64,000 nt of DNA from Escherichia coli (GTDB taxonomy: Bacteria > Pseudomonadota > Gammaproteobacteria > Enterobacterales > Enterobacteriaceae): NCBI RefSeq assembly GCF_013122565.1, contig NZ_CP053258.1; one strand, given 5' to 3'. How positions within the stretch are numbered: position 1 is the stretch's first letter; every line of letters begins with the position of its first letter. The notes below the pieces were generated by a model. It had not been told where the DNA came from. It saw only the letters and a list, made by a program, of their open reading frames with translations, and ran no database searches. A program made the translations under genes and the position numbers. Below, one piece after another: positions 10,779-42,993 of the stretch.

Positions 10779-10781
10779 GAG

Positions 10782-11082: not shown

Positions 11083-11084
11083 GG

Positions 11085-11160
11085 TGGTGGGTGATGACGG
11101 GATCGAACCGCCGACCCCCTCCTTGTAAGGGAGGTGCTCTCCCAGCTGAGCTAATCACCC
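11085..11160 (-). tRNA. valT: tRNA-Val (UAC)
   Basis: Identical 76-nt tRNA-Val copy. Confidence 0.9.
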
Positions 11161-11195
11161 GATACTACGCTGGATACTACAACTAACTATGTTAG

Positions 11196-11268
11196 TGGTG
11201 GGTCGTGCAGGATGACTCGACTTCGTCTCGCCCTTCGGGCCGTTGCTGACGCAACGTTATCCTTCACG
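11196..11268 (-). repeat. spacer repeat carrying a truncated tRNA-Lys 3' end (copy C, more diverged)
   Basis: Same tRNA-Lys 3' fragment followed by a related but more diverged GC-rich segment. Confidence 0.5.
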
Positions 11269-11295
11269 TTTTACTACCGCTTCCACCTTAGCGCT

Positions 11296-11371
11296 TGGTG
11301 GGTCGTGCAGGATTCGAACCTGCGACCAATTGATTAAAAGTCAACTGCTCTACCAACTGAGCTAACGACCC
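11296..11371 (-). tRNA. lysT: tRNA-Lys (UUU)
   Basis: Identical 76-nt tRNA-Lys copy; first gene of the operon on the minus strand. Confidence 0.9.
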
Positions 11372-12327: not shown

Positions 12328-12336
12328 GCAATTCTC

Positions 12337-12882
<546 letters not shown>

Positions 12883-21287: not shown

Positions 21288-22232
21288 ATGAGTCCTGATA
21301 ATATCGGTTCGGCTGTCAATCGCTTCTCAGGTTGGCCATCTAATGATCCTCTAAAAACAGATAAAGAATCAACGACATCACCCGTGACAGTGCAGGTAAT
21401 AAAGATGATTGCCGCCATCCTTGACCCACATCGGATAGTCGTTGGAATCGATACACTTTATACAACGCAGCGCGAAACATTTACCTCAGAGAGTCAACAG
21501 CTCATTGAATCAGCATTGCAAACACTTCATGTGATGAATTTAAATAACCTGGAAACAAATCGCGATGAAGAAGGTCACTATCTGGCTTTTGAATATAACG
21601 TTGACACCTCTGACAGAATAACCGTTTCTGCTTACAATGAAAAAAATCCTGGCTGCTATGGCCAATGTCTTTTAATACAGGATGACGAAACAGACTTATT
21701 CAACCTGATAAAAATTAAAATTTTTGAAGCCAGGCATAATTATGTCGCTCAATTGATGAGCGATCCAGAATTTATGTTCAAATTCAGTTATAGCGCTCAA
21801 CAAAATAGATTAGAACCTCATCTTCTGGTTCCCGCTTATTTCCCTCTAAAAACAAACGAACCGGTTACGCAAGAGGATGTACTGTTACTTTATCGTTTCT
21901 TTAAAATGAATGATGATTTTAACAAATTAACATCAGATGAATACATGAGTATCCTGACACCTCTGATGAAGTGTGAGCGTAGCGTCCACGACAACAACAG
22001 GTATGTGACGGGCAAAGATACCCTTCTTCTGGACTATCCTCCTTCTGGTAACCAGATACATTTCCATGTTTTCCCTGACGAATCAGCAACACTAGTCCTT
22101 TATTTTTCAAACAATGACCTTGAATATTTCGTCTTTGAAAGAGATATTCCGAGCCAGTATCGCTTTTTCAAAATGTTTACCAATCTGGCACTGGTTATAG
22201 ATCAGTTAACCGAAGCCCATAAAATACTTTAA
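21288..22232 (+). CDS. hypothetical protein, 314 aa, AT-rich codon usage, no recognisable motif
   Basis: ATG at 21288 with a GAGG RBS 8 nt upstream; Ser/Thr/Pro-rich N-terminus; no family recognised by eye. Confidence 0.55.
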   Translation: MSPDNIGSAVNRFSGWPSNDPLKTDKESTTSPVTVQVIKMIAAILDPHRIVVGIDTLYTTQRETFTSESQQLIESALQTLHVMNLNNLETNRDEEGHYLAFEYNVDTSDRITVSAYNEKNPGCYGQCLLIQDDETDLFNLIKIKIFEARHNYVAQLMSDPEFMFKFSYSAQQNRLEPHLLVPAYFPLKTNEPVTQEDVLLLYRFFKMNDDFNKLTSDEYMSILTPLMKCERSVHDNNRYVTGKDTLLLDYPPSGNQIHFHVFPDESATLVLYFSNNDLEYFVFERDIPSQYRFFKMFTNLALVIDQLTEAHKIL

Positions 22233-22312
22233 TTTTCTATATATCCCTATGGCAAATATTGCTAAACAATGCCTGGGGATTAATTTTTATTACTCACGGA
22301 AAGATTTAAATA

Positions 22313-22735
22313 ATGATATCATCTCAGATCTCTTTCAGTACTCTTCCTGTCAATGCAACATACGCTTCAGAGACAACAGTTGACACACAAAAATTCTCTG
22401 ACATCCTCTACTCAGCGGGGTGTTCCCTAAAGGATATGGCTTATCTGAGCAGATGTCTGGCATCAATACACCCGACTATCGCCAAAAACATTTATGAAAC
22501 AGAAAATCTCAGCGATCAAAAATTACTGCATATTGATTGCCGTAGTACAAATGACATCAAGATAAATATCTTTTTTGGTCAGCAACGAGAAGGATTAATT
22601 GAAATTAGTTCTGACACAGTTATTTTTTCGATACTGTCTTCATTGATTGACTCCGCCATTTCTAAATTTCAACATCAAAACCCGGTTAACGGTTCAGTTA
22701 ATCCTGAACTATTGTATGAGGATTATACTGATTAA
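22313..22735 (+). CDS. hypothetical small acidic protein, 140 aa
   Basis: Co-directional ORF 80 bp after the 314-aa ORF, same AT-rich composition; weak RBS, so the start is uncertain. Confidence 0.45.
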   Translation: MISSQISFSTLPVNATYASETTVDTQKFSDILYSAGCSLKDMAYLSRCLASIHPTIAKNIYETENLSDQKLLHIDCRSTNDIKINIFFGQQREGLIEISSDTVIFSILSSLIDSAISKFQHQNPVNGSVNPELLYEDYTD

Positions 22736-23281
22736 ATCCACCCTGTCGCGAAAAATGGCCTGCGTTATTGCCAGACGTAATAAAACCTTTGATTAACGTT
22801 ACTCATACTGATAGCACCTTCATGTACCTCTCTTTTTTACGCAAATCAAAAGAGCTAACGAAGGTCATAATTCGCATGAATCATTAACCATTTGTTATTT
22901 TCAACATTACTTTTACATTAAGCAGAAATGAATGGTAGTGAAATTCGACTTAAATTTTATGAAATGCATTTACTTATGGCTAAACCCATATCACTAAAAT
23001 GCAAATTAGAAGTAGATCACAAATATCTCAATACACCAAATCAAGTTAATTTTAAAAATTTAACATTCATGACATTAGTTGACATAACACACTGAATTAA
23101 CATGGAAATTTAAAAACACACTTTAAACAATCATTTCCCGAAAGACATTTTGAAAATAGATCAATTGCAACATTACGGTCAGATAAAGACACTCCTGTGA
23201 TATTAAACCTGTGCCGTTATGAACGGCCATAAATACGACGTGTGTAACTTATTTTACTCTCTGTCTTACAAAGGATTACCC

Positions 23282-23731
23282 ATGAAGAAAGCAACACTTG
23301 TGATTGGCGTTATTGGCGCGGACTGCCATGCAGTAGGCAATAAAGTTCTGGACCGCGTTTTTAGCAACCACGACTTCAGAGTCATTAATCTGGGCGTAAT
23401 GGTCAGCCAGGACGAATATATTGATGCTGCCATTGAAACTGGCGCTGACGCGATTGTCGTCTCCTCTATCTATGGGCATGGCGATATCGACTGTCTGGGC
23501 ATGCGCGAACGCTGCATCGAGCGTGGACTGGGGGACATCCTGCTCTATGTGGGCGGTAACCTGGTGGTAGGAAAACATGACTTCGCTGACGTGGAAAACA
23601 AGTTCAAAGAGATGGGATTTGATCGCGTCTTTGCCCCAAGTCATGACTTAGAAGAGGTTTGTCAGCTGATGGCCCACGATATCAACCAACGTCATGACGT
23701 TGATACTCGCATTCTTGAAGAGGCAATCTGA
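23282..23731 (+). CDS. mamA: glutamate mutase sigma (S) subunit, B12-binding (methylaspartate mutase small subunit)
   Basis: ORF 23219..23731 trimmed to the ATG at 23282 after AAGGA; [24 protein letters not shown] carries the DxHxxG cobalamin-binding motif and aligns with clostridial GlmS/MutS. Confidence 0.85.
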
Positions 23732-25119
23732 TGCAAATCGTCTCTGTCGATATTGGATCGACGTGGACCAAAGCAGCCCTCTTCACCCGGGAGGGGGACG
23801 CGTTAACGTTGGTTAACCACGTACTGACCCCAACCACCACCCATCATCTGGCGAAGGGGTTTTTCTCCAGCCTGAACCAGGTGTTAAACGTAGATAATGC
23901 CCTCCCCCTGTTAAACAGCGGTGAGGTTGCATTGAAGTATTCCTCCTCTGCCAAAGGTGGGCTGGCGGTTGCCGCAATGGGATTGGTGCCTTCTATCACC
24001 CTGGAAACCGCGAAAGTAACCGCTCACTCTGCGGGTGCTAAAATTGCGCAATATTACGCCTACAAGCTGAACCGCCGTGATATCCAGGCACTGGAAGAAA
24101 CGCAGCCCGATATTCTCTTGTTCACCGGCGGCACCGACGGCGGAGAAGAAAGCTACGGACTGAATAACGCCCGTGTGCTGGCAGAATCCAAACTCGACTG
24201 CGCCATTATTTATGCCGGAAACCGGGATATTCAGGACGAGGTGCAGGAGATCCTCGGACATAAAGACCTGACCATCGTCGACAACGTTCTGCCCGATCTT
24301 GACCATCCGAACCCTTTAGCCGCACGCCAGGCTATCTGCGACATATTCCTTAAACGCATCGTTAAAGGGAAAGGGCTGGATGTCATTGTTGATAAAACAG
24401 GCGAAGAACCAATGCCGACACCATGGACGGTCTTTGAACTGGTTAAGGCAATCAGTAACGTCGATCACAGCTGGAAAGAGTTCATGCTGATCGACATGGG
24501 CGGCGCAACCACCGATGTCTATTCCGCCTGTGCCAACACGCTCTCGCCCGACACCGTTTTACACGGCGTACCGGAACCCTTCGTAAAACGGACGGTGGAA
24601 GGCGATCTGGGAATGCGCGTCTCGGCAATGGTGGTTGGTGAAAGTGCGAAAGAGTTAGTCAATGTAAATTTTGCTCAGCAACCCGCACAGCTGGACGCTT
24701 TTTATCATTACCTCCGTCATTTAGTCGCTCATCCCGACTACTTACCCGCGAATGCAGAAGAAAAATATTTCGATACCGTCCTGGCCGGACTGTGTGTGGG
24801 TTATGCCACCGAAAGACATGCGGGCACCAAAAAAGAGGTCTGCACCTGCGTCGGCAATGTCGATTTACAAATGGGACGTGACCTGACAACCGTGCGTAAA
24901 GTCGTCGGATCCGGCGGATGGCTCTCGCGTGCCAGTCAGTTCGATATGCATCACTGGTTGAAATACCGCGAGTTAAACGACGACGGTAAACGCATTCTCT
25001 TACCGACCGAATTTGAATATTACCGCGATTCCCGGGGGCTATTACCACTGCTGGCAAACGTCGCCAGAGTCGATCCGCTGGCCGCCGCGCGCACCAGTAT
25101 TCAATGCTTAACCCTATAA
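23731..25119 (+). CDS. glmL: glutamate mutase L protein (GlmL/MutL, putative chaperone/reactivase)
   Basis: 462 aa, starts [18 protein letters not shown] (actin-like ATPase N-terminus); start overlaps the S-subunit stop (tgATG); sits between S and E as in clostridial operons. Confidence 0.8.
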   Translation: MQIVSVDIGSTWTKAALFTREGDALTLVNHVLTPTTTHHLAKGFFSSLNQVLNVDNALPLLNSGEVALKYSSSAKGGLAVAAMGLVPSITLETAKVTAHSAGAKIAQYYAYKLNRRDIQALEETQPDILLFTGGTDGGEESYGLNNARVLAESKLDCAIIYAGNRDIQDEVQEILGHKDLTIVDNVLPDLDHPNPLAARQAICDIFLKRIVKGKGLDVIVDKTGEEPMPTPWTVFELVKAISNVDHSWKEFMLIDMGGATTDVYSACANTLSPDTVLHGVPEPFVKRTVEGDLGMRVSAMVVGESAKELVNVNFAQQPAQLDAFYHYLRHLVAHPDYLPANAEEKYFDTVLAGLCVGYATERHAGTKKEVCTCVGNVDLQMGRDLTTVRKVVGSGGWLSRASQFDMHHWLKYRELNDDGKRILLPTEFEYYRDSRGLLPLLANVARVDPLAAARTSIQCLTL

Positions 25120-25137
25120 CAATTAAGGCTGCAATCA

Positions 25138-26583
25138 ATGGAACTTCGAAATAAGAAATTAACCCATGACGAATTCATGACCGAGCGGCAACAGGTACTG
25201 AAAACCTGGGAAACCGGCAAGGATGTTGAAAATTTTGAAGATGGCGTTAAATACCAACAAACCATTCCTGAGCATAAACGCTTCTCTCTCGCCCTGCTGA
25301 AAGCAGACAAGGAAGGTAAAACCCTTAGCCAACCGCGCGCAGGTGTGGCGCTGATGGACGAACACATCGAACTACTGAAAACACTACAAGAAGAGTGCGA
25401 TCTGCTGCCAAGCACCATCGATGCATATACCCGTCTGAATCGGTACGAAGAAGCGGCTGTAGGGATTAAAAAATCCATCGAAGCCGGAACCTCTAAACTG
25501 AACGGTTTACCGGTAGTTAACCACGGAGTCGCAGCTTGCCGTCGCCTCACCGAAACCCTGCAAAAACCGCTACAGATCCGCCACGGCACGCCAGATGCGC
25601 GTCTGCTGGCTGAAATCTCGATGGCCAGTGGCTTTACCAGTTACGAAGGCGGCGGCATTTCCTACAACATTCCGTATGCCAAACGCGTAACGCTGGAAAA
25701 ATCGATCCGCGACTGGCAGTACTGCGACCGTTTAATGGGGATGTATGAAGAACACGGGATCCGCATCAACCGCGAACCATTTGGCCCACTAACGGGTACG
25801 CTGATCCCGCCGTTTATCTCGCACTCTATCGCCATAATCGAAGGCTTGCTGGCGCTGGAACAGGGTGTGAAATCTATCACCGTTGGTTATGGCCAGGTCG
25901 GCAGCCTGACGCAGGATGTTGCGGCGATCCAGTCTCTGCGTGAACTTGCACATGAATACTTTCAGAGCTATGGCTATACCGACTATGAATTAAGTACCGT
26001 GTTTCACCAGTGGATGGGCGGCTTTCCGGAAGACGAATCGAAAGCGTTCGCTATTATCTCCTGGGGCGCAGCCGTCGCGGGGATGTCTGGTGCCACCAAA
26101 GTCATCACCAAAAGTCCGCACGAAGCCTGGGGTATCCCAACTGCCGCTGCCAACATTCAGGGGCTGAAAGCCTCCCGCCAGATGCTCAACATGGTCAATG
26201 AGCAGAAATTCCCGCCATGCCCTGCGGTTGAACTGGAAATTGAACTGATTAAGAGCGAGGTTCGCGCGGTACTGAATAAAGTGTTCGAACTGGGTAATGG
26301 TGATATTGCGCGCGGTACGGTGCTGGCATTTGAAGCGGGCGTACTGGATGTGCCGTTTGCGCCAGCCGCCTGCAACGCGGGCAAAATTCTTCCGGTCCGT
26401 GACAACACCGGCGCGATACGCGTACTGGAAGCCGGAGCCGTTCCATTGCCAAAAGATATTCTCGACCTCCACCACGATTACGTTGCGGAACGCGCACGCT
26501 GTGAAGGACGCCAACCGACATTCCAGATGGTTGTAGATGACATCAATGCTGTATCCCACAGTAAATTAATAGGAAGACCATAA
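25138..26583 (+). CDS. mamB: glutamate mutase epsilon (E) catalytic subunit (methylaspartate mutase large subunit)
   Basis: 481 aa, starts MELRNKKLTHDEFMTERQQVLKTW; conserved blocks PRAGVALMDEHIELL, HGTPDARLLAEI, FHQWMGGFPEDESKAF match clostridial GlmE. Confidence 0.88.
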   Translation: MELRNKKLTHDEFMTERQQVLKTWETGKDVENFEDGVKYQQTIPEHKRFSLALLKADKEGKTLSQPRAGVALMDEHIELLKTLQEECDLLPSTIDAYTRLNRYEEAAVGIKKSIEAGTSKLNGLPVVNHGVAACRRLTETLQKPLQIRHGTPDARLLAEISMASGFTSYEGGGISYNIPYAKRVTLEKSIRDWQYCDRLMGMYEEHGIRINREPFGPLTGTLIPPFISHSIAIIEGLLALEQGVKSITVGYGQVGSLTQDVAAIQSLRELAHEYFQSYGYTDYELSTVFHQWMGGFPEDESKAFAIISWGAAVAGMSGATKVITKSPHEAWGIPTAAANIQGLKASRQMLNMVNEQKFPPCPAVELEIELIKSEVRAVLNKVFELGNGDIARGTVLAFEAGVLDVPFAPAACNAGKILPVRDNTGAIRVLEAGAVPLPKDILDLHHDYVAERARCEGRQPTFQMVVDDINAVSHSKLIGRP

Positions 26584-27824
26584 TGAAAATAAAACAGGCC
26601 CTGTTCACCGCTGGCTATTCCTCATTCTATTTCGATGACCAGCAGGCGATAAAAAACGGAGCGGGTCACGACGGCTTTTTTTATACCGGGGAGCCAGTAA
26701 CACAGGGGTTTAACGCCGTACGTCAGGCCGGGGAGTGCGTATCGGTACAGTTGATTCTGGAAAACGGCGCGGTCGCTGTAGGTGACTGTGCTGCCGTACA
26801 GTATTCCGGGGCAGGTGGTCGCGATCCACTGTTCCTCGCAGAGCACTTTATTCCGTTCCTCAACGACCATATTAAGCCATTACTGGTAGGCCGCGATGTG
26901 GATACTTTCCTGCCGAATGCCCGTTTCTTCGACAAATTGCGTATTGACGGCAACTTGCTGCATACCGCCGTGCGCTACGGATTATCACAGGCGCTGCTTG
27001 ATGCTACCGCGCTGGCAACCGGCCGTCTGAAAACTGAAGTGGTCTGTGATGAATGGCAGTTGCCACGCGTGGCGGAATCCATTCCATTATTTGGTCAGAG
27101 CGGCGACGATCGATATATCGCCGTCGATAAGATGATCCTTAAGGGCATCGACGTGCTGCCCCATGCGCTGATTAATAACGTCGAAGAGAAGCTGGGCTTT
27201 AAAGGTGAAAAACTGAGCGAATATGTCCGCTGGTTGTCGGATCGCATTCTAAGCAAGCGCACCAGCGCGCGCTACCACCCTACCCTGCACATCGATGTAT
27301 ACGGCACTATCGGTCTGATCTTCGATATGGATCCGCTCCGCTGTGCGCAATACATCGCCAGCCTGGAAAAAGAAGCGCAAGGCCTGCCGCTCTACATCGA
27401 AGGGCCGGTCGATGCCGGTAACAAGCCCGATCAAATTCGCCTGCTGACCGCGATTACCAAAGAGCTGACGCGCCTCGGTTCCGGCGTGAAAATTGTGGCC
27501 GATGAATGGTGTAACACCTACCAGGATATTGTTGATTTCACTGATGCTGCCAGTTGTCACATGGTGCAAATCAAAACCCCGGATCTGGGCAGTATTCACA
27601 ACATCGTCGATGCGGTTCTTTACTGCAACAGCCACAGCATGGAAGCGTACCAGGGCGGCACCTGCAATGAAACTGATGTCAGTGCCCGCACCTGTGTCCA
27701 CGTCGCCCTTGCCGCTCGCCCTATGCGTATGCTGGTAAAACCAGGGATGGGCTTTGACGAAGGCCTCGATATCGTCTTCAACGAAATGAATCGTACTATC
27801 GCGCTGTTGCAGGCTAAGGATTAA
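26583..27824 (+). CDS. 3-methylaspartate ammonia-lyase (beta-methylaspartase)
   Basis: 413 aa, start overlaps the E-subunit stop (taATG); blocks CAAVQYSGAGGRDPLF, FGQSGDDRY, HMVQIKTPDLG, CNET match clostridial methylaspartase (enolase superfamily). Confidence 0.88.
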   Translation: MKIKQALFTAGYSSFYFDDQQAIKNGAGHDGFFYTGEPVTQGFNAVRQAGECVSVQLILENGAVAVGDCAAVQYSGAGGRDPLFLAEHFIPFLNDHIKPLLVGRDVDTFLPNARFFDKLRIDGNLLHTAVRYGLSQALLDATALATGRLKTEVVCDEWQLPRVAESIPLFGQSGDDRYIAVDKMILKGIDVLPHALINNVEEKLGFKGEKLSEYVRWLSDRILSKRTSARYHPTLHIDVYGTIGLIFDMDPLRCAQYIASLEKEAQGLPLYIEGPVDAGNKPDQIRLLTAITKELTRLGSGVKIVADEWCNTYQDIVDFTDAASCHMVQIKTPDLGSIHNIVDAVLYCNSHSMEAYQGGTCNETDVSARTCVHVALAARPMRMLVKPGMGFDEGLDIVFNEMNRTIALLQAKD

Positions 27825-27827
27825 CAA

Positions 27828-29198
27828 ATGGCTCGTTCTTTTAAAGTCTTATCGCCAACGGCAATCCTCGGGTATGGATTCCCGGAAGAGAGCTTCCGCA
27901 AAGCGATGGCAGAATCGCCCGATCTGATCGCCGTTGATGCCGGCTCTTCCGATCCAGGCCCCCACTACCTCGGGGCAGGCAAACCGTTTACCGATCGCGC
28001 AGGGGTCAAGCGCGATCTGCGCTATATGATCACCGCAGGCGTGCAAAATAATATACCGGTGGTGATCGGAACGGCTGGCGGTTCTGGTGCCGCACCACAC
28101 CTGGAGTGGTGCCGAGAAATAATTCATGAGATTGCCCGGGAAGAGCACCTCTCGTTCTCGATGGCGTTGATCCCGGCAGACGTTGACAAAGCCATCGTCC
28201 ACCAGGCGCTGGATAACGGCAAAATCACGGCGCTGGATTTTGTCCCGCCGTTAACCCACGACGCGATTGACGAAAGTACGTATATCGTTGCGCAAATGGG
28301 CATCGAACCCTTCCAGCGGGCTCTGAAAGAAGGCGCGCAAGTGGTGCTGGGCGGGCGCGCTTACGACCCGGCCTGCTTTGCTGCGCTCCCGATCATGCAA
28401 GGCTTTGATGAAGGTCTGGCGCTGCATTGTGGGAAAATCCTTGAGTGCGCAGCAATCGCCGCAACGCCCGGCTCAGGCTCTGACTGTGCGATGGGCATCA
28501 TTGATGACAACGGCTTTACGCTGAAGACATTTAATCCGAAGCGTAAATTTACCGAAACGTCAGCAGCTGCACACACACTGTATGAAAAATCCGATCCCTA
28601 CTTCCTGCCAGGACCTGGCGGCGTGTTGAACCTGAAAGGCTGCACATTTAAAGCAGTCAATGACGGCGAAGTCTACGTCAGCGGTTCTAAGCATGAAGAA
28701 ACGCCGTATGCCCTGAAACTGGAAGGTGCACGACGGGTGGGCTTCCGCTGTCTGACCATCGCCGGAACGCGCGACCCGATCATGATCGCCGGGATCGATA
28801 AAATCATCGATGAAGTCAAAATCAGCGTTTCGCGTAACCTGTCGCTTGACGATGACAGCATTCGCATCAATTTCCACCTGTACGGCAAAAACGGGGTGAT
28901 GGGCGACCATGAACCGATGCAAACTACCGGGCATGAGCTGGGGATTGTCCTTGATGTAGTTGCACCGACCCAGGAAATTGCCAACAGCGTTTGCTCGCTG
29001 GTGCGCTCTACCATGCTGCACTACGGCTATGAAAACCGCATCGCTACCGCAGGCAACCTGGCGTTCCCGTTCTCCCCTTCTGATATCCAGGGCGGGCCGG
29101 TATACGAATTTTCCATATATCACCTGATTGAAGCCAACGACGCTCTGCGTTTTGATTTCCATATTGAACAGGTGACGCCAGAAGGAGTTCAGGTATGA
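27828..29198 (+). CDS. uncharacterised protein, 456 aa (tentatively AtuA-like/DUF1446-type; family not verified)
   Basis: ATG at 27828 with AAGGA 7 nt upstream, 3 bp after the methylaspartase stop; Gly-rich, no cofactor motif recognised by eye. Confidence 0.6.
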   Translation: MARSFKVLSPTAILGYGFPEESFRKAMAESPDLIAVDAGSSDPGPHYLGAGKPFTDRAGVKRDLRYMITAGVQNNIPVVIGTAGGSGAAPHLEWCREIIHEIAREEHLSFSMALIPADVDKAIVHQALDNGKITALDFVPPLTHDAIDESTYIVAQMGIEPFQRALKEGAQVVLGGRAYDPACFAALPIMQGFDEGLALHCGKILECAAIAATPGSGSDCAMGIIDDNGFTLKTFNPKRKFTETSAAAHTLYEKSDPYFLPGPGGVLNLKGCTFKAVNDGEVYVSGSKHEETPYALKLEGARRVGFRCLTIAGTRDPIMIAGIDKIIDEVKISVSRNLSLDDDSIRINFHLYGKNGVMGDHEPMQTTGHELGIVLDVVAPTQEIANSVCSLVRSTMLHYGYENRIATAGNLAFPFSPSDIQGGPVYEFSIYHLIEANDALRFDFHIEQVTPEGVQV

Positions 29199-29512
29199 AA
29201 CAGTCAATTGTCTCACTGGCGCAAGTCATTCGTTCGAAAAATGCCGGTCCTTACGAACTGGTTTTAGATATTTTATTTAAAACGAAAGAAAACTATGAGC
29301 GAGTTAAATCATCAGGGCAATTAACCCCAGAACTGATTGCGCGCTTATATCATGTTGAACCTGACTTTATTCATCGTATTGTCTGGTTTGATCCTTCTAA
29401 CGCAGTAAAAATCGTCATGCCACGAGATATTATCTCCGGGAATGTAGGTGACAATGATGTCTATGGTGCACAGCAACATGCACCTTTATTAAATATGAGT
29501 TTCGATTTGTAA
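29195..29512 (+). CDS. uncharacterised small protein, 105 aa, translationally coupled to the preceding ORF
   Basis: ATG at 29195 overlaps the upstream stop (ATGA); no recognisable motif. Confidence 0.55.
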   Translation: MKQSIVSLAQVIRSKNAGPYELVLDILFKTKENYERVKSSGQLTPELIARLYHVEPDFIHRIVWFDPSNAVKIVMPRDIISGNVGDNDVYGAQQHAPLLNMSFDL

Positions 29513-29672
29513 AAATCCGAACACTTTTAGCCAACTGACATCCCATCACTTATTGCAGTTCAACACTTCAGCTATTTGTAAGGTTGTAATAGCAGGTAGA
29601 TGCCTGAGTCTCTATTCAGGCATCTACTTCTCCTGATTCTGATTTATCGCCGTGCACCTGATGGAGGAAAAA

Positions 29673-30953
29673 ATGAAGAAAATAAGTTTAACCACGATGA
29701 TTCTTTTGGCGCTGGTACTTGGAATGATTATCGGCGTAGTGCTCAATAACACTGCTTCACCGGAAACCGCAAAACTCTATGCGCAAGAAATATCGATATT
29801 CACGACGATTTTCTTACGACTGATAAAAATGATTATCGCTCCGTTAGTGGTCTCTACCCTGGTGGTAGGTATAGCTAAAATGGGCGATGCCAAAGCCCTT
29901 GGTCGTATTTTTTCTAAAACACTTTTTTTATTTATTTGCGCCTCATTGCTGTCAATTGCCTTAGGCTTGATAACAGTAAATTTCTTCATGCCAGGCACAG
30001 GAATTAATTTTGTTGCACACGGAGCCGAAACCACCGGAGTGGTCGCGTCAGAACCCTTTACGCTAAAAGTATTTATTTCGCATGCTTTCCCCACCAGCAT
30101 TGTCGATGCCATGGCGCACAATGAAATTTTGCAAATCGTGGTGTTCTCAATTTTCCTCGGCTGTAGCCTGACGGCGATTGGCGAGAAAGGCAGCGCCATC
30201 GTTCACGCCTTAGATTCGCTGGCACATGCCATGTTAAAGCTCACTGGCTACGTCATGCTCTTCGCTCCCCTGACCGTATTCGCCGCTATTTCAGCATTGA
30301 TTGCTGAACGAGGACTGGCAGTTATGGTGAGCGCCGGGATCTTTATGGGTGAATTTTATTTCACCATGTTGTTACTTTGGGTACTGCTTATCGGTCTGGC
30401 CATCGTTTATGTCGGCCCCTGCATCAGACGCCTGACCCGCGCCCTTTCGGAACCCGCCCTGCTGGCATTTACCACATCCAGTTCTGAAGCGGCTTTTCCG
30501 GGAACGCTTGAAAAACTGGAGCAATTTGGCGTTTCCCCCAAAATTGCCAGCTTTGTCTTACCCATTGGCTACTCATTTAATCTCGTTGGATCAATGGCCT
30601 ACTGCTCCTTCGCCACAGTTTTCATCGCCCAGGCCTGCAATATCCATTTATCCATCGGTGAGCAAATCACCATGCTGTTGATCCTGATGTTGACCTCGAA
30701 AGGAATGGCTGGCGTACCACGCGCCTCAATGGTGGTTATCGCCGCCACGCTCAACCAGTTCAATATTCCGGAAGCAGGGCTGATCTTGCTGATGGGCGTT
30801 GATCCGTTCCTTGATATGGGGCGTTCCGCGACAAACGTCATGAGCAACGCAATGGGCGCTGCGATGGTGAGTCGGTGGGAAGGCGAACATTTCGGCGAGG
30901 GCTGTCGGGGTAAAGCATTAAAACCCAATGAATCGAACGTTGCTCTGCCCTGA
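29673..30953 (+). CDS. dicarboxylate/amino acid:cation symporter (GltP/DctA family), candidate glutamate or C5-dicarboxylate transporter
   Basis: ORF 29652..30953 trimmed to the ATG at 29673 after GGAGGA; polytopic, with the family serine-rich motif (TTSSSEAAFPGTLEKLE) as in GltP. Confidence 0.8.
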   Translation: MKKISLTTMILLALVLGMIIGVVLNNTASPETAKLYAQEISIFTTIFLRLIKMIIAPLVVSTLVVGIAKMGDAKALGRIFSKTLFLFICASLLSIALGLITVNFFMPGTGINFVAHGAETTGVVASEPFTLKVFISHAFPTSIVDAMAHNEILQIVVFSIFLGCSLTAIGEKGSAIVHALDSLAHAMLKLTGYVMLFAPLTVFAAISALIAERGLAVMVSAGIFMGEFYFTMLLLWVLLIGLAIVYVGPCIRRLTRALSEPALLAFTTSSSEAAFPGTLEKLEQFGVSPKIASFVLPIGYSFNLVGSMAYCSFATVFIAQACNIHLSIGEQITMLLILMLTSKGMAGVPRASMVVIAATLNQFNIPEAGLILLMGVDPFLDMGRSATNVMSNAMGAAMVSRWEGEHFGEGCRGKALKPNESNVALP

Positions 30954-31060
30954 GGGGGATCTTAAGCAATCAGAAGCCAATGACTACGCATTTTTATAAG
31001 CCGGATCATGAAGTTAGACGGCAATTAAGTAACACTAACGTTTAAGGTGAAAAGTGAAAT

Positions 31061-32713
31061 ATGTCCAAACCATTTATCTGGCAAGAACCGTTTCTACAAA
31101 ATAAAGACGGTACAGAATATACATTAATTAGCGATCAACATATTACAGTAACGGAATTAGACGGCGAAGAAGTGATAAAAATCGCTCCTGAAGCATTAAC
31201 GCTGCTTGCCCGGCAGGCATTTTATGAAGCCTCTTTTTTCTTACGTTCCGCTCATTTGCAACAGGTCGCCAGCATTCTTAACGATCCGCAGGCCAGTAGT
31301 AATGATAAATACGTTGCGTTGCAGTTATTACGTAATGCTGAAGTCTCAGCAAAAGGGGTATTACCCAACTGTCAGGATACCGGCACCGCAACTATTGTTG
31401 CCAGGAAAGGGCAACAGATATGGACCGGAGGTAACGACGCTGAAGCCTTAAGCAAAGGCATTTACACCACTTTCCAGGAAAATAATCTGCGCTTTTCACA
31501 AAATGCGCCGCTGGATATGTATACCGAAGTCAATACGCAAACCAATCTCCCGGCGCAGATTGATATCAGCGCCGTCGCTGGTGATGAGTACCATTTTCTC
31601 TGTGTTAATAAAGGGGGCGGCTCCGCCAATAAAGCCACGCTTTATCAGGAAACCAAATCCTTATTGCAACCAGAAAAACTGACCGCATTTTTAATCGAAA
31701 AAATGAAATCGCTGGGCACCGCTGCCTGCCCGCCTTACCACATCGCCTTTGTCGTCGGAGGGCTTTCAGCCGATCAAACCTTAAAAGTTGCCAAGCTGGC
31801 TTCTACGAAATATTACGACAATTTGCCCACCAGCGGAAACGAGCAGGGACAAGCATTCCGTGATATTGAGCTGGAAAAAGTGATGCTCGAGGCCAGTCAG
31901 CAATTTGGTATTGGTGCGCAATTTGGGGGTAAATATTTCGCTCATGATATTCGCGTCATTCGTCTGCCGCGTCACGGTGGCTCCTGCCCGATAGCTATGG
32001 CGCTCTCCTGTTCAGCCGATCGCAATATCAAAGCAAAAATTAACAAGCACGGTATCTGGCTGGAAAAACTCGAACACAATCCGGGGCAATATATTCCAGC
32101 CTCACTATGGGAAGAAAATCACGCGCAACATGTACAACTGGATCTAAACCGTCCGTTGCGTGACGTGATGCAGGATCTCGCCAGATTACCGGTAGGTACC
32201 CGCGTGTCGTTAAGTGGTCCCATCGTAGTGGCGCGCGATATCGCCCACGCCAAAATAAAAGCGCGGCTGGATAGCGGCGAATCGATGCCGGAGTACCTGA
32301 AGCATCATATTGTCTATTACGCTGGCCCGGCGAAAACACCGGAGAACATGGCCTGCGGTTCACTAGGTCCAACCACGGGCGGTCGAATGGACGGTTATGT
32401 CGATACCTTCCAGGCTGCTGGCGGCAGTCTGGTGATGTTATCGAAAGGTAACCGCAGCCAGCAGGTCACCGATGCCTGTCACAAACATGGTGGCTTCAAT
32501 CTGGGAAGTATTGGCGGTGCAGCTGCGTTACTGGCGCAAGAATATGTCAAAAGTCTGCGTTGCCTGGAATACCCGGAGCTGGGTATGGAAGCGGTGTGGA
32601 TGATGGAAGTGGAAAATCTGCCCGCATTCATCCTGGTAGATGATAAAGGCAATAATTTCTTTAGTCAGTTTGAGCAGCAACACCGCTGCGCCAGTTGCCC
32701 TGCGGGACATTAA
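31061..32713 (+). CDS. class I (Fe-S) fumarate hydratase family protein, FumA/FumB paralogue; candidate mesaconase
   Basis: 550 aa, full-length similarity to FumA as remembered (blocks [55 protein letters not shown]); context suggests mesaconate hydration. Confidence 0.85.
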
Positions 32714-32722
32714 GGAAAATGA

Positions 32723-33325
32723 ATGGAAGCGCGAATTTCAACTGAACGGCATGTGCAGCGCCAGCAGAAATTGAAGGAACAGGTCGATACGCGCGTCGCG
32801 GCGGCGATAGAGAAAAAAGGGATCTTGATTGTTTTCACCGGCAATGGCAAAGGGAAATCCACTGCCGCGTTTGGTACGGTGACGCGCGCGGTGGGTCATG
32901 GCAAAACGGTGGGGGTTGCGCAGTACATCAAGGGGCAATGGGACAACGGCGAATACAACCTTCTCCAGCCGCTCGGGGTTGAGTTTCATATTATGGGAAC
33001 CGGTTTTACCTGGGAGACACAGAACCGGCAAGCGGATATCGACGCGGCGAAAGAGGTCTGGTCGGAAAGCAAACGGATGCTGGCTGACAAGCGTTACGAC
33101 TTAGTGGTGCTTGATGAGCTGACCTATATGCTGGCTTACCATTATCTGGATACCGAAGAAGTGATCGCTTCTCTGCAAAACCGCCCGGCACAACAAAGTG
33201 TCATTGTCACCGGACGCGGTTGCCACAGTCAGATATTAAAAATGGCGGATACGGTCAGCGAAATCCGCCCCGTCAAACATGCTTTTGATAACGGCATTCA
33301 GGCCCAGCCGGGTATCGACTGGTAA
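32723..33325 (+). CDS. cob(I)alamin adenosyltransferase, BtuR/CobA-family paralogue
   Basis: 200 aa with P-loop GNGKGKSTAAFG and full-length similarity to BtuR as remembered; AAGGA RBS; last gene of the operon. Confidence 0.85.
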   Translation: MEARISTERHVQRQQKLKEQVDTRVAAAIEKKGILIVFTGNGKGKSTAAFGTVTRAVGHGKTVGVAQYIKGQWDNGEYNLLQPLGVEFHIMGTGFTWETQNRQADIDAAKEVWSESKRMLADKRYDLVVLDELTYMLAYHYLDTEEVIASLQNRPAQQSVIVTGRGCHSQILKMADTVSEIRPVKHAFDNGIQAQPGIDW

Positions 33326-33328
33326 TAA

Positions 33329-33356
33329 CTGCGCCTGGCATCCCGCCAGGCGCAGG
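33329..33356. terminator. bidirectional terminator between the B12-operon end and the convergent LysR gene
   Basis: Perfect 11-bp inverted repeat ctgcgcctggc / gccaggcgcag around a 5-nt loop, followed by gtttt. Confidence 0.7.
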
Positions 33357-33358
33357 TT

Positions 33359-34264
33359 TTACATCTCCTGCGGTACGACCGATTTCGCCAGCAACCATTC
33401 ACGAAATTGCTGCAAGTGCGGCGAGTCAGACTTCTCTTCCTGCCACGTCATAATAAAACGATTACCGGTACGAATAGGCACATCACAGGGAATCACCATA
33501 TCGCCACTATCCAAATCATGTTGAATAGCGAACCGTGGTAACAGCGCCACGCCGAGATTAGAGCGCACGGCGGCAATCAACATTGAAAGCAAATCGAAAC
33601 GTGGCCCGTTGTTGACCAGCGGACTGCTAACGCCAGATAAAGCAAACCACTCTTCCCAGCCAGTAATACGGGTGCTTTGATGCAGAAGTGGTAACTCAGT
33701 AAGCAGTTCTGCCACTGACAGTTTTTGATCGGACATTGCAAGCAAACTGCCGCTGCATACCGGCAAAATCTCCTCTTCAAAGAGATATTCTACTTCCGCC
33801 CAGGGCGCGCAAAAATTTTCGCGCATAATGACAGCATCGTACTCCCGATTAAGAAAATCGCCGTTATTAGCTAAAGAATGAATATTAACAATAATATCGG
33901 GATGTAACTTTGTGAATTCATGTAAATTTGGGATTAACCAGTGGGTACTAAAAGTAGGATTAACGGCAAGTTCAATAACCTGAACCGTAGGCTGCCAGGT
34001 CATAATGGTATTGGTATCGCGTTCCAGCTTATTTAATGTTTCTTTTACTATCCCCAGGTAATACTTCCCTGCATCATTAAGAAAAATACGTTTTTTAGAG
34101 TGTGAAAATAACGGAGTACGTAAAAATTCCTCCAGCGCACTTACTTGTCTGAATACTGCACTTTGGGTTAACGCTAACTCCTCTGCCGCTCTGGTATAAC
34201 TTTCATGACGTGCGACGACCTCAAAAGTCACCAGCAGTTCCGTTTTAGGTATTTTTCCTCGCAT
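33359..34264 (-). CDS. LysR-family transcriptional regulator
   Basis: ORF 33359..34294 trimmed to the Met after a ggaagg RBS (MRGKIPKTELLVTFEVVARHESYTRAAEELALTQSAVFRQVSALEE is a typical LysR HTH); about 301 aa. Confidence 0.85.
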   Translation of the reverse strand: MRGKIPKTELLVTFEVVARHESYTRAAEELALTQSAVFRQVSALEEFLRTPLFSHSKKRIFLNDAGKYYLGIVKETLNKLERDTNTIMTWQPTVQVIELAVNPTFSTHWLIPNLHEFTKLHPDIIVNIHSLANNGDFLNREYDAVIMRENFCAPWAEVEYLFEEEILPVCSGSLLAMSDQKLSVAELLTELPLLHQSTRITGWEEWFALSGVSSPLVNNGPRFDLLSMLIAAVRSNLGVALLPRFAIQHDLDSGDMVIPCDVPIRTGNRFIMTWQEEKSDSPHLQQFREWLLAKSVVPQEM

Positions 34265-34854
34265 AATGCCTTCCGTGAAAAAATAACAATTCAAAAAATT
34301 ATTTTATAAAAAACAGTAGCGCTAATGAATATCATAATTCAAATAAACAAACCAGTCAGCTATATGTCTAACCAGGAAAATAAAGTGACAATAATCCTAA
34401 AACAGGAATTTCACCTCAGTTATCCGCATGCAATGCTTTAAAGCCATTATTGCAAGAATATTATTCATATACATGAATATACTCTAAATAAGTCGAGTTG
34501 GAGGAAGGGAACAAATAATGAATTTCCAGAAGCTTACATAAGTAAGTGACCTGGGTGAGCGAACATCGATGCAGCACATGCAACTTGAATTATGACAAGT
34601 ATACAATGATAAATTTAGATACCCTATGTTATATATTATCTATGTCCGGTTAAATTGAATGAGTCATGGCCTTCAAAGACATCGCAAAAGATAATTTCTC
34701 TTTAACAATAAGCCAGATTTACCACTTGTAAAAATTGCTATCGCCACATACACTACGCGCGTTTTCTTTCCCTTTTGCTGGCTGCTGACCGGAAAGACAA
34801 AATTACCCTCGCAATACAGGGGGTTGTTTAACGTCTATATTTCAGGACAGCGTT

Positions 34855-36252
34855 ATGCATCATCTTTCAAGGCTTGATAAAGCCTTTCTGCGCAAAGGGA
34901 TCCAACTTTCCCGCGCCAACAATATTGTTTCATTATCTCGTCCATCAGGTGTCAGTGCCCGCGTACTGCTGCCAGACGAACTGCCGCTGGAAGAAAAAGC
35001 AGTAACACAACTGCTTGATTTTGCAGAAGTGAAGCTACCAGACCACCCAGGTTATGTACGCCAGACGTGTGCGACGCCAGATTTTCATCCCGGCAATGGC
35101 GTCCCCGTTGGCGCGGTGGTAGCCTCAACGCCGGATTTAGTCATTCCCGCCGCCATCGGCACCGATATTTCTTGTGGCATGCGGCTGCTGACGACCGGAA
35201 TAACACTTGAGCAAGCCGAAGCGCATAAAGACGTCATCACTCAGCGGTTAACGCAAGTGTTACTGCAAAATGAGCGCGATGTTCCGTTATCTGCACGAGC
35301 GTTCACCGCGCTTTTTGATGGCGGGCCGGCAGATTGCATGTCGGCCTTGCCATCAGCAGGTCTCTGGACACGCACGAATATCCCCCGAATGGTACAAGAG
35401 ATTGACCGCTGCATTGGGCTGAACGAGCATAAAAGTCATTCGCGTTATGCCCCACCCGCCCTGCTGGCAACGGACCGCGCATTACTCCGCGACCCTTGTC
35501 TGGGTACGCCGGGTTCAGGTAATCATTTTATTGAACTTCAGGTAGTTGATAGCGTGATCGATCGCCATGTAGCCTGGCAACAAGGGCTGAAAACAGGCGA
35601 TATCGTGGTGATGATCCATAGTGGATCGCGAGATGTCGGCTTTTACGTCGGACGACGCTGGACGGACCGTGCCCGCGCAGACTGGCCCGCTGGGCATAAA
35701 CATCCACAAAGCGGGTTATATGGTCTGGCTGGTGGACTGGCGGAGGAATATCTACAAGCGATGGGAATGGCGGCGCGTTACGCATGGTTAAATCGCGTGA
35801 CCATTACGGAAATGGTGCGCGTATGTTTTGCCGATTTATTCCATCAGGATGAATCACATCTGGTGGTGGATGTGCCGCATAACATCATCCTTCGCGAGCA
35901 TGAGATGAATATTCATCGCAAAGGCGCAACACCGGCACGTGCGGGCGATCTGGCGTTAATCCCCGGTTCAATGGGCGATTATTCGTGGCTTGCGGTAGGT
36001 TGCGGCAACCCGGAGTGGTTGTGGTCATGCAGTCACGGAGCAGGACGCAGCCAGCGTCGGCAGGCCATGCGCGCACACGCGACTGAAGAGTCAACGCTGC
36101 CGTGGCAATGCGTAACACTGCGTGAAGAACGGCGTATTGAGGAAGCGCCAGCTGCTTATAAAGATATTGGTCCGGTTATCGAAGCCCAACAAGAAGCTGG
36201 ATTAATTCAGCCAGCGGTCAGATTTCGACCGTGGTTAACGTTTAAGGCATAA
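34855..36252 (+). CDS. RtcB-family RNA ligase paralogue (465 aa, N-terminally extended)
   Basis: Motifs typical of RtcB: PDFHPGNG, GTDISCGM (cf. GVDIGCGM), and HGAGR near the C-terminus; divergent from the LysR gene across 590 bp. Confidence 0.75.
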   Translation: MHHLSRLDKAFLRKGIQLSRANNIVSLSRPSGVSARVLLPDELPLEEKAVTQLLDFAEVKLPDHPGYVRQTCATPDFHPGNGVPVGAVVASTPDLVIPAAIGTDISCGMRLLTTGITLEQAEAHKDVITQRLTQVLLQNERDVPLSARAFTALFDGGPADCMSALPSAGLWTRTNIPRMVQEIDRCIGLNEHKSHSRYAPPALLATDRALLRDPCLGTPGSGNHFIELQVVDSVIDRHVAWQQGLKTGDIVVMIHSGSRDVGFYVGRRWTDRARADWPAGHKHPQSGLYGLAGGLAEEYLQAMGMAARYAWLNRVTITEMVRVCFADLFHQDESHLVVDVPHNIILREHEMNIHRKGATPARAGDLALIPGSMGDYSWLAVGCGNPEWLWSCSHGAGRSQRRQAMRAHATEESTLPWQCVTLREERRIEEAPAAYKDIGPVIEAQQEAGLIQPAVRFRPWLTFKA

Positions 36253-36274
36253 AAAAGGCCATCATACGATGGCC
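36251..36274 (-). terminator. rho-independent terminator of the sdh-suc transcript / SdhX
   Basis: Hairpin ggccatc-gtat-gatggcc followed on the minus strand by a U-run (plus-strand aaaaaa at 36251-36256); begins immediately after the RtcB-like stop codon. Confidence 0.75.
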
Positions 36275-36349
36275 AACCATGTCGAAACCGACAGCCCTTC
36301 GCCATTCCTGTAGAGGGAAGCGGCGAGGGCTATTTCTTATTACAGATAT
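36251..36349 (-). ncRNA. sdhX: putative SdhX (RybD) sRNA from the sucD 3' UTR
   Basis: About 100 nt between the sucD stop (36350) and the terminator; contains ...caggaauggcgaagggcugucgguuucgacaugguuggccaucguaugauggccuuuu, which matches my recollection of the SdhX 3' region. Confidence 0.5.
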
Positions 36350-37219
36350 TTATTTCAGAACAGTTTTCAGTGCTTCACCGATATCCGCCAGGCTGCGAAC
36401 GGTTTTCACGCCTGCGGCTTCCAGAGCCGCGAATTTCTCATCCGCAGTCCCTTTCCCACCGGCAATGATGGCACCTGCGTGGCCCATACGTTTGCCTTTC
36501 GGCGCAGTCACACCAGCGATGTAACCTACAACTGGCTTGGTAACGTGCTCTTTGATGTACGCTGCTGCTTCTTCTTCAGCGCTACCGCCGATCTCACCGA
36601 TCATCACGATCGCTTCGGTCTGCGGATCTTTTTCGAACATTTCGAGGATGTCGATAAAGTTAGAGCCAGGGATCGGGTCACCGCCGATACCAACACAGGT
36701 CGACTGACCGAAACCGTAATCCGTGGTCTGTTTAACCGCTTCATAGGTCAGTGTACCGGAACGGGAAACGATACCCACTTTACCCGGTTTGTGAATGTGA
36801 CCAGGCTGGATACCGATTTTGCATTCACCTGGGGTGATAACGCCCGGGCAGTTCGGGCCGATCATACGAACGCCGGCTTCATCCAGTTTCACTTTCACAG
36901 TCAGCATATCCAGCGTCGGGATGCCTTCAGTGATGGTGATAATCAGTTTGATGCCTGCGTCGATGGCTTCCAGAATGGAGTCTTTGCAGAACGGTGCTGG
37001 TACGTAGATAACAGAAGCGGTAGCGCCAGTGGCAGCAACGGCTTCACGCACGGTGTTGAACACCGGCAGGCCGAGGTGGGTGGTGCCGCCTTTACCTGGG
37101 GTTACGCCGCCAACCATTTTAGTGCCGTATGCAATAGCCTGTTCTGAGTGGAAAGTCCCCTGGCTACCGGTAAAACCCTGGCAGATAACCTTGGTGTTTT
37201 TATCAATTAAAATGGACAT
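36350..37219 (-). CDS. sucD: succinyl-CoA synthetase alpha subunit
   Basis: 289 aa, [45 protein letters not shown]. Confidence 0.95.
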
Positions 37220-38467: not shown

Positions 38468-38640
38468 CCCGTAGGCCTGATAAGACGCGTCAGCGTCGCA
38501 TCAGGCATCGCTTGTCGGATGCGGCGCGAGCGCCTTATCCGACCTACATCGGTGCTTCCCGTAGGCCTGATAAGACGCGTTAAGCGTCGCATCAGGCTTC
38601 AATGGCCGGAGAAGGCGATAATGCCTTATCCGGTCTACAG
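38468..38640. repeat. REP/BIME cluster in the sucB-sucC spacer
   Basis: Two tandem ~85 bp units each beginning cccgtaggcctgataagacgcg...gcgtcgcatcaggc, typical REP palindromes. Confidence 0.75.
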
Positions 38641-42872: not shown

Positions 42873-42993
42873 CGCCTGATGCGCTGCGCTTATCAGGCCT
42901 ACGGGTAATGACGTGTAGGCCGGATAAGGCGTTCACGCCGCATCCGGCACTGGTTGCCTGATAAGACGCTTGAGCGTCTTATCAGGCCTACGG
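42873..42993. repeat. REP/BIME cluster in the sdhB-sucA spacer
   Basis: gcctgatgcgctgcgcttatcaggcctacg ... gcctgataagacgcttgagcgtcttatcaggcctacg palindromic units. Confidence 0.75.

Follow-up and report, generated by a model that had tools for sequence, protein, structure and literature searches.

Bacterial RtcB RNA ligases repair tRNA and rRNA that have been cut by toxins. Two modes of control are known for them in bacteria: transcriptional control by RtcR and sigma-54, and the sharing of an operon with PrfH. In the canonical rtcBA operon, a sigma-54 promoter is activated by RtcR; in the Salmonella rsr-yrlBA-rtcBA operon, structured non-coding Y-like RNAs lie next to rtcB, and Rfam includes a YrlA family. 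A second RtcB paralogue, found in the RtcB2-PrfH module, is present in some E. coli strains (PMC13166195). Here we describe the 590-bp spacer (34265-34854) that separates a LysR-family regulator gene from an rtcB-like gene in a 64,000-nucleotide stretch of Escherichia coli DNA (contig NZ_CP053258.1 of assembly GCF_013122565.1; hereafter the window, with positions counted from its first letter). The last ~130 bp of the spacer would form a functional unit of the rtcB-like gene, inherited with it and made up of a sigma-70-type promoter followed by a leader of ~93 nt; that the conserved structured leader is real we consider very probable. A preliminary description of the spacer had missed this conserved, structured, rtcB-proximal part, which corresponds to a cis-acting RNA leader and not to a trans-acting small RNA (sRNA).

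The rtcB-like gene (34855-36252, plus strand) encodes a protein of 465 aa that matches the Pfam RtcB family with an E value of 1.5e-95 and falls below the NCBIfam cutoffs both for PRK09588 (201.6 vs 407) and for the PrfH-associated TIGR03073 (164.7 vs 271.8). Its relatives fill at least 1240 protein clusters at E <= 1e-50, and the distant homologues are stand-alone genes whose neighbours differ from species to species. As judged from sequence, the gene represents a stand-alone third type, neither the RtcB of the rtcBA operon nor the PrfH-linked RtcB2. It resembles the rtcBA and Salmonella rsr-yrlBA-rtcBA systems in having a control element in front of an RtcB RNA ligase, but no rtcA, rtcR or rsr gene lies beside it and its promoter looks sigma-70-type; a search made by eye only found no sigma-54 -24/-12 element before the gene. 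The RNA at this locus also differs from the Salmonella Y-like RNAs, in that it is a cis leader and not a Y RNA and has no Rfam match. Like the RtcB2-PrfH module, the gene is an extra RtcB paralogue in some E. coli strains, but no prfH adjoins it, its TIGR03073 score is below cutoff and it has a leader of its own. In one homologous locus, that of Chitinivorax sp. B (L031 2977-3549), a PTS_2-RNA gene (KptA/Tpt1-type RNA 2'-phosphotransferase) directly follows the rtcB-like gene, the sole RNA-repair-related neighbour among the sampled loci. Among E. coli carriers, strain F6326-C1 has ATT instead of ATG at the annotated rtcB start, and in strain SCU-172 rtcB is truncated by another insertion.

A sigma-70 promoter for the rtcB-like gene is predicted on the plus strand at 34726-34754, with the -35 hexamer TTGTAA at 34726-34731, a spacer of 17 nt and the -10 hexamer TACACT at 34749-34754, which would put the transcription start at ~34761-34763. 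We regard it as a candidate promoter because a -35/-10-like pair is kept at fixed spacing in unrelated contexts; cTTGTWW lies exactly 17 nt before TACACT or TAAACT (TAMACT) in three otherwise unrelated upstream contexts. The predicted 5' leader of the mRNA then occupies 34762-34854 and ends at the start codon. Its first element is a hairpin, P1 (34765-34797), supported by folds and by covariation, in which the pyrimidine strand Y1 (UCUUUCC, 34765-71) pairs with the purine strand R (GGAAAGA, 34791-97) and closes the loop L1 (34772-90), which carries an invariant GCUGCUG (34781-87). A P2/P3 domain (34798-34843) follows, seen in single-sequence folds and, for P3, with RNAalifold; here AAAU/GUUU and (A)GAC/GUCU pairings surround P3 (CCCUC, 34806-10, with GGGGG, 34819-23), and a second pyrimidine strand, Y2 (UUC, 34841-43), is able to pair with R in place of Y1. 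The ribosome-binding region (34844-34857) comprises the Shine-Dalgarno (SD) sequence AGGA (34844-47), the segment CAGCG (34848-52), complementary to L1, and the AUG (34855-57). Its assignment rests on duplex energy and on the minimum free energy (MFE) fold, and the duplex between L1 and the pre-AUG segment amounts to -10.6 kcal/mol.

Together with its promoter, this is the one part of the spacer that shows constraint. In five E. coli loci, only 2 of the 108 columns in 34747-34854 are variable (1.9%), versus 5.6-8.7% in the rest of the spacer, 139 of 1398 columns (9.9%) in the rtcB coding sequence (CDS) and 26 of 906 in the LysR gene. By the same counts, E. coli carriers differ unusually often in the rtcB-like CDS compared to the adjacent LysR gene. 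Across ten loci, including one from a 93%-identical Escherichia sp., four substitutions fall outside the stems (in the P3 loop, the 3' tail and the promoter or 5' flank); the exception is a 2-nt change in strain A34 (L017), which touches stem position 34823, the last of the P3 3' strand, and keeps a U-G wobble.

The same arrangement is found far beyond E. coli. We compared 19 leaders from ~12 lineages of Beta- and Gammaproteobacteria, with protein identities of 57-95% (57-68% for the distant ones); a scan of genome contigs gave only 8 loci, and the wider diversity came from protein look-ups. The homologues sampled are from Acidovorax, Massilia, Gilliamella, Saezia, Snodgrassella, Undibacterium, P. 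aeruginosa, Pseudomonas sp., Burkholderia, Ralstonia, Pseudogulbenkiania, Variovorax, Chitinivorax, Chitinimonas and uncultured lineages. By inspection, the upstream layout is the same in all 19 loci. A -10-like hexamer, often with TTGACA 16-18 nt away, ends 5-10 nt before the leader, which begins with a pyrimidine Y1 (CCUUCC-like); L1 with its invariant GCUGCUG comes next, and then a purine R (GGAAGG-like) that is complementary to Y1 and forms P1 with it. In the 3' part, P2 (GAC/GUAC...GUC/GUAC) encloses a P3 that differs from lineage to lineage, and is followed by a U/C-rich Y2 and by a segment before the AUG that is complementary to L1. In one locus (L038, deposited as a 473-aa call), the layout places the true AUG 21 nt downstream of the deposited start (L038 1501-1524, AUG at 1522), and a covariance model of the leader, described below, independently ends its match at this corrected AUG.

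The helices of the leader covary. In an alignment of 15 leaders curated by hand, with N padding instead of gaps (A3), 93.5% of cells are paired versus 60.9% in shuffles, 21 of the 24 pairs are changed on both sides, and the covariation score is 0.639 versus 0.196 (0 of 500 shuffles reach it; slid-partner controls give 0.06-0.17), all of which are upper bounds because the alignment was fitted by hand to the structure. An uncurated MAFFT alignment of 7 leaders (A4), analyzed with RNAalifold, recovers P1 and P3, and the same procedure applied to all 15 leaders gives no consensus structure. The covariance model (R1) was built from the 7 sequences of A4, and it scores the leader in the window at 75.8 bits (E 3e-17). 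Held-out leaders are found by R1 at the right position and on the right strand, with E values of 2e-6 (L012), 2e-5 (L036), 1e-4 (L038), 7e-4 (L034), 1e-3 (L010), 4e-3 (L009 and L008) and 0.01 (L011); two Comamonadaceae leaders with long insertions are found at E 0.15-0.2, and enterobacterial copies related to the seed are found as well. At E <= 1, 19 of 22 rtcB-homologue loci have a sense-strand match that extends to the AUG. An alignment derived from this model (A5), and thereby adapted to it, in which one of the rows is spurious, has a covariation score of 0.46 versus 0.21 (0 of 500 shuffles; slid controls 0.07-0.23). For P1, both sides are changed in 7 of 8 pairs in A3 and in 5 of 6 in the model-derived alignment; constrained folds predict P1 in all leaders but L034, whose 5-bp stem was found by eye and entered in A3. 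We also compared cognate with non-cognate strands, a test that uses no alignment. The cognate strands pair better both for P1 (p = 2.7e-4, or 3.6e-4 with one representative per lineage) and for an extended P2, that is R plus P2a with P2b plus Y2 (p = 7.7e-6, or 2.9e-4 with one per lineage), and a control pairing was null.

The leaders also have in common a potential to pair with their own ribosome-binding site (RBS). In all 19 leaders, L1 is more complementary to the pre-AUG segment than to shuffled partners (mean z = -2.3), and the MFE folds of 17 of 17 leaders include this pairing. In each of the 17 full-length leaders, the MFE fold is one long hairpin in which L1 pairs with the SD and pre-AUG segment, R pairs with Y2, P3 forms the apex and Y1 is left free. 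Once the last 12 nt before the AUG are removed, P1 is in the MFE fold of 6 of 17 leaders.

These folds suggest a model in which the leader governs the start of translation of the RNA ligase by burying or exposing its RBS. When R pairs with Y1, P1 would form and present the invariant GCUGCUG in its loop; when R pairs with Y2, the long hairpin would form and the loop sequence would be released to pair with the SD and pre-AUG segment. Competition of Y1 and Y2 for R could thus constitute a switch, and Y1, the first of these strands to be transcribed and the one at the extreme 5' end, would loosen the long hairpin. To an action on translation through the RBS we give about even weight, on the basis of modelled folds; the switching, like any role of the LysR regulator, is hypothetical. 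In several respects, the leader resembles described leaders that sequester an RBS (riboswitch platforms, RNA thermometers and ribosomal-protein leaders). It is promoter-proximal, ~93 nt long and has covarying helices, one of its strands has two alternative partners, and its most stable fold pairs the SD/AUG region. It differs from them in that it has no match in Rfam 15, its loop:RBS pairing is not supported by covariation, and it is tied to a single stand-alone gene family and not to a metabolic regulon. As expected of cis-regulatory leaders in general, it lies between a promoter and a start codon on the sense strand, and its helices show compensatory changes, seen in alignments with a curation bias and in related sequences.

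Several points weigh against this interpretation, in addition to the hand fitting of A3 and the composition of A5. The 19 leaders are not independent, because they come from only ~12 lineages. Two of the R1 matches are placed upstream and do not reach the AUG, ending 67 nt (L007) and 42 nt (L035) before it, and the leader of L037 is missed. In the window, R1 also reported a match at 48656-48748 (21 bits, E 0.007), which we rejected as spurious, as it is inside a fimbrial-subunit-like open reading frame (ORF) of 188 aa (48607-49173). For the pairing of L1 with the pre-AUG segment, three tests of covariation were not significant (swap test p = 0.07-0.28), and this pairing is a conserved complementarity, not a demonstrated covariation. 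The RBS is predicted to be only slightly less accessible than in shuffled leaders (mean z = -0.8, negative in 17 of 17), and the fold energy of the leader in the window is unexceptional taken alone (z = -1.4). The promoter and the transcription start are predictions; the hexamers match the consensus at 8 of 12 positions, below the threshold of the consensus scan. Finally, Rfam 15 gave no family match at the leaders of E. coli and seven other species, and an incomplete literature search turned up no RNA motif associated with rtcB; these two negatives do not prove that the leader has never been described. No catalogued family includes it, and we propose it, from its sequence and predicted structure, as a candidate for a new RNA family.

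Two other explanations take the conservation of the rtcB-proximal segment as given and assign it a different meaning. The segment 34747-34854 might be conserved at the level of DNA only, as a promoter, operator or UP-like element, with the helices an artefact of alignment. In its favour are the hand curation of A3, the failure of MAFFT to give a consensus with 15 sequences and the weak fold z score in the window, and yet the P3 stems change completely and stay complementary (CCCUC/GGGGG, CUUCUC/GAGGAG, CUCUGGAU/AUCCAGGG, GACCGCCGG/CCGGAGGUC), the alignment-free MFE folds of single sequences arrive at the same architecture in 17 of 17 leaders, the cognate-strand tests are significant, the uncurated A4 yields P1 and P3, and R1 finds held-out members. 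We therefore judge an element acting only as DNA to be very unlikely. It is less improbable, although still doubtful, that the leader is real and has another role, as a transcription attenuator (P2/P3 followed by a U-run), a 5' stabilizer hairpin or a protein platform, for instance for autoregulation by RtcB. A U-run does follow P2/P3 in roughly half of the species, as in Burkholderia (GUACCUUUUUCAUUUU), Chitinivorax (GUCUUUUU) and Saezia (GUGUUUUUCU), but the Pseudomonas leaders have none after the hairpin, and the U-rich strand serves as the partner of R and covaries with it. There is also no obvious antiterminator, because formation of P1 would leave the core P2/P3 hairpin intact. P1 is situated at the predicted extreme 5' end, as in known stabilizer hairpins, and the invariance of GCUGCUG is not accounted for by its variable pairing partner, which suggests an additional interactor; against such roles stands the long hairpin with the SD/AUG, the MFE fold of every full-length leader.

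Outside the rtcB-proximal segment, the spacer has a different history. Its extent, 590 bp between the LysR gene and the rtcB-like gene, agrees with the preliminary description and with the RefSeq start annotation at near-identical E. coli loci, and it is indeed AT-rich, with a GC content of 0.346 versus 0.507 for the window and a minimum of 0.29 at 34300-34499 (the string quoted earlier as an example, tatacaatgataaatttagataccctatgttatatattatc, is at 34600-34640). The statement that it is unusually long holds in part: among the 37 intergenic gaps that a crude ORF-based gene call gives for the window (median 97 bp), it ranks fourth in length, and two of the divergent gaps, of 802 and 693 bp, exceed it. 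The longest gap in this crude call is accounted for by a cluster of seven minus-strand tRNA genes (five Lys-UUU, two Val-UAC) with three RtT repeats at 10372-11371. On the left side of the glutamate-fermentation island described below, two further long gaps resemble the spacer in composition, at 20486-21287 (802 bp, 33.5% GC, divergent) and 22736-23218 (483 bp, 31.7% GC).

The LysR gene (33359-34264, minus strand) encodes a GcvA-like regulator of 301 aa, identified as an ORF with Pfam HTH_1 and LysR_substrate matches and by the RefSeq annotation of homologous loci; its match to the NCBIfam GcvA subfamily is below cutoff. It forms the right end of a glutamate-fermentation (methylaspartate mutase) island, and it is a pseudogene or truncated in some strains. 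From left to right, the locus consists of this island, which ends with a class I fumarase gene, cobO and the LysR gene (minus strand), and then the spacer, the RtcB-family gene (plus strand) and sucD and sucC (minus strand).

Comparison of genomes indicates that the spacer is a mosaic of three parts and not one regulatory unit: it is a seam, in the variable sucD-cydA region, at which modules of independent inheritance adjoin. This composite explanation, including the rtcB leader, is in our judgement the likely one. At 34282/34283 and 34746/34747, similarity to other loci of E. coli, Citrobacter and Escherichia sp. breaks off, which bears out the earlier suggestion of a remnant of an island junction. 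The first 18 bp (34265-34282) are linked to the LysR gene and are also present in genomes that have this gene and lack this spacer or rtcB, such as O157:H7, in which homology stops at 34282; an 80%-identical Escherichia sp. locus can be aligned to ~34315. The last 108 bp (34747-34854) travel with the rtcB-like gene in every genomic context seen. Between these lie 464 bp of lineage-specific, AT-rich filler (34283-34746, 31.7% GC), found at >=80% coverage in only 144 of 5426 complete E. coli genomes. In the same genomes, the whole spacer as query gives a match in 1131, with most of it covered in only 144, and outside a repeat discussed below the filler has no match elsewhere in these genomes or in plasmids, for which the search returned only copies of the repeat and mis-typed chromosomes. 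The sequences at the position of the filler in O157, hut-type, Citrobacter and Escherichia sp. loci are unrelated to it and to one another, although all of them have 29.5-35% GC.

The two flanking modules are distributed separately. The rtcB module is present in 295 of the 5426 genomes and this particular spacer in 144; the LysR end occurs without rtcB in ~836 genomes and rtcB without the LysR gene in ~150. In hut-type genomes, hutU takes the place of the island and homology begins at 34747, a boundary that recurs in a Citrobacter sp. metagenome-assembled genome, an Escherichia sp. contig and four metagenome contigs. The four loci found by scanning metagenomes with a 30-mer of the leader are all of the hut type already known and added no diversity. 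Because the breakpoints recur and the contexts differ, we conclude that the LysR and rtcB genes are neighbours by juxtaposition and not as an inherited pair. In O157:H7-type genomes, 34282 is followed by ~450 bp of unrelated AT-rich DNA and then by two remnants of a degraded rtcB; the persistence of these two short pieces indicates that rtcB was lost there by deletion. In O157:H7 TR01 (L002 6084-6731), the remnants correspond to 35979-36035 and 36209-36349 of the window and lie between the LysR gene and sucD. The O157:H7-type LysR gene is annotated as a pseudogene with an internal stop.

More widely, the sucD-cydA interval (window 20000-36300; L001, L003, L004 and L016-L020) is a hotspot in which the methylaspartate island, the hut operon, mngAB and rtcB occur in varying combinations, and in some strains mngB instead of sucD follows rtcB. 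The spacer is like the AT-rich junctions of horizontally acquired islands in E. coli, which are typically bound by H-NS, in that it has 29-36% GC at a seam between modules of different distribution; it differs in that this seam also holds a conserved functional unit at its rtcB end.

The repeat within the filler is a diverged ERIC/IRU element of 127 bp (34478-34604, plus strand), which the preliminary description did not mention and which we defined by alignment with three other copies. Members of the ERIC/IRU family are 127 bp long, carry inverted repeats at their ends and TA at their termini, and contain a short reading frame (PMC2229807, PMC3184786). The copy in the spacer aligns end to end with the ybhJ/ybhI and yafP/pepD copies of K-12 and with a Salmonella copy; its ends are TATACTC...AAGTATA, and its terminal inverted arms (34478-34500 and 34581-34603) are 74% complementary. 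Its RNA fold is an imperfect palindrome, as in elements that resemble MITEs (small transposable elements with inverted repeats), that pairs the ends (z = -2.9). The sequence AAGCTTACATAAGTAAGTGAC at 34530-34550 has 1 mismatch in 21 nt to the ERIC central core, where 0 matches are expected by chance; this core is the contiguous region of the ERIC1R and ERIC2 primers, and the alignment with the other copies confirms the match. With the filler as query, matches were obtained in 5425 of 5426 E. coli genomes, at ~84% identity and over query positions 187-321 only. Such copies occur at a median of 6 places per genome, are intergenic and have no annotated feature underneath, and the copy also matches Salmonella, Klebsiella and Citrobacter records. 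Thus, all four defining features tested (length, palindrome, core and dispersed copies) are present, and 34478-34604 is a member of the ERIC/IRU family.

This copy departs from others of the family in its divergence (~84% identity to other E. coli copies) and in its position, which appears to be between two divergent promoters and not inside a transcription unit. Co-transcribed ERICs of Yersinia have effects on mRNA stability (De Gregorio 2005, as reported in a citing paper); such effects probably do not apply here, because this copy seems to sit between divergent promoters. Because both predicted promoters lie downstream of it, the element probably has a passive role, that of a passenger, and it may have been inserted into the lineage-specific filler or carried with it. 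In strain A25, a deletion extends from glmE to 34468, 10 bp from the ERIC element; we considered recombination mediated by ERIC and dropped this idea, as the junction has no second ERIC copy or obvious homology.

Could the spacer as a whole nevertheless be an extended divergent control region? On this explanation, the LysR protein would bind at several T-N11-A boxes, autoregulating its own gene and activating or repressing rtcB, and the length of the spacer would result from many protein sites, including sites for H-NS. The LysR gene (minus strand) and rtcB (plus strand) do diverge in the classic arrangement of LysR-type transcriptional regulators (LTTRs), the DNA is AT-rich, and there are candidate boxes at 34692-34704 (TAA-N7-TTA, ~64 bp upstream of the predicted rtcB start) and at 34718-34732. 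The latter is the best dyad, TTTAC-N5-GTAAA, with perfect 5+5 arms, and it overlaps the predicted -35 element of rtcB. Boxes of the kind anticipated in the preliminary description are thus present, but at about the rate expected by chance: the window contains 270 T-N11-A matches versus 224 expected, and by our estimate ~1 dyad of this quality is expected per 590 bp of this composition. The dyad is also absent from other rtcB contexts, no convincing k-mer or motif is shared between the spacer and the upstream region of the glmS operon, the middle of the spacer varies at a neutral pace (5.6-6.3% of columns outside ERIC among carrier strains), and the LysR gene, which is inherited separately from the rtcB module, is broken in some strains. 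For these reasons, we find a single control region unlikely.

It is more improbable still, to the point of being remote, that the lineage-specific middle part holds a small gene of its own, for an sRNA or for a protein too short to pass the ORF threshold, two kinds of product that had been proposed for the spacer. There are ORFs of 25-40 aa on both strands and promoter-like hexamers, but no ORF of >=20 aa has a usable SD, four small ORFs have no Pfam or NCBIfam match, and the promoter-like hexamer pairs are no more frequent than in shuffles (4 versus 3.2 +/- 1.8). When starts were scored with SD energies, the only good one belonged to a 7-codon ORF (34518-34541) inside the ERIC element, behind the strong SD GGAGGAAGGG; this ORF belongs to the ERIC consensus, and the strength of its SD depends on a G at 34501 that is seen only in this strain. 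For an sRNA, Rfam 15 at E <= 10 gave nothing relevant in 34200-34920, only noise (snR44, CLRN1-AS1, Chloroflexi-1), a tRNA/tmRNA scan of 33000-37000 found none, and a consensus scan for promoters and terminators returned counts near chance, with one weak terminator-like site inside the spacer and no convincing one. The segment has no homologue outside the 144 E. coli genomes, and its variability is not reduced. Apart from the conserved leader at the rtcB end, the spacer is largely ordinary, a seam in a known variable region together with a textbook ERIC repeat.

Several further elements were noted elsewhere in the window. A scan of the whole window at Rfam gathering thresholds returned only tRNAs, RtT, naRNA4 and the cpoB thermometer, all of them outside the spacer; the elements at 12298-12436, 38474-38635 and 42918-42988 correspond to the cpoB/ybgF thermometer (142 bits) and to repeats of the naRNA4/REP type, which lie in the sucB-sucC gap and in one other intergenic region. 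In the convergent gap between rtcB and sucD (36253-36349), a GC-rich hairpin, aaaaaaggccatcatacgatggcc, lies right behind the rtcB stop codon, and this region is kept even where rtcB has been lost. There is no Rfam match in this gap; in K-12, SdhX, an sRNA from the sucD 3' untranslated region, lies at this position.

If the leader does control translation, it offers an experimental handle on when cells call on this RtcB ligase, and the invariant loop may point to the substrate or the trigger of the ligase. A bolder and rather speculative possibility is that the leader is a dedicated sensor for an RNA-repair ligase and represents a new class of riboregulator, its GCUGCUG being read not by its own mRNA but by an RNase toxin, a conserved cellular RNA, RtcB itself or a small molecule. 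Were this so, cleavage of the loop, for example, would leave 2',3'-cyclic-phosphate and 5'-OH ends, which are substrates of RtcB, and would free the RBS, so that RtcB is made; by resealing the cleaved leader, RtcB could afterwards switch itself off, and P. aeruginosa, Burkholderia and a minority of E. coli would have a third, separately regulated RtcB system. The comparison across species points to a third, widespread, stand-alone type of RtcB that has its own conserved structured leader and extends to P. aeruginosa, Burkholderia, Ralstonia, bee-gut symbionts and ~5% of E. coli, and this leader may merit a place in Rfam as a new RNA family.

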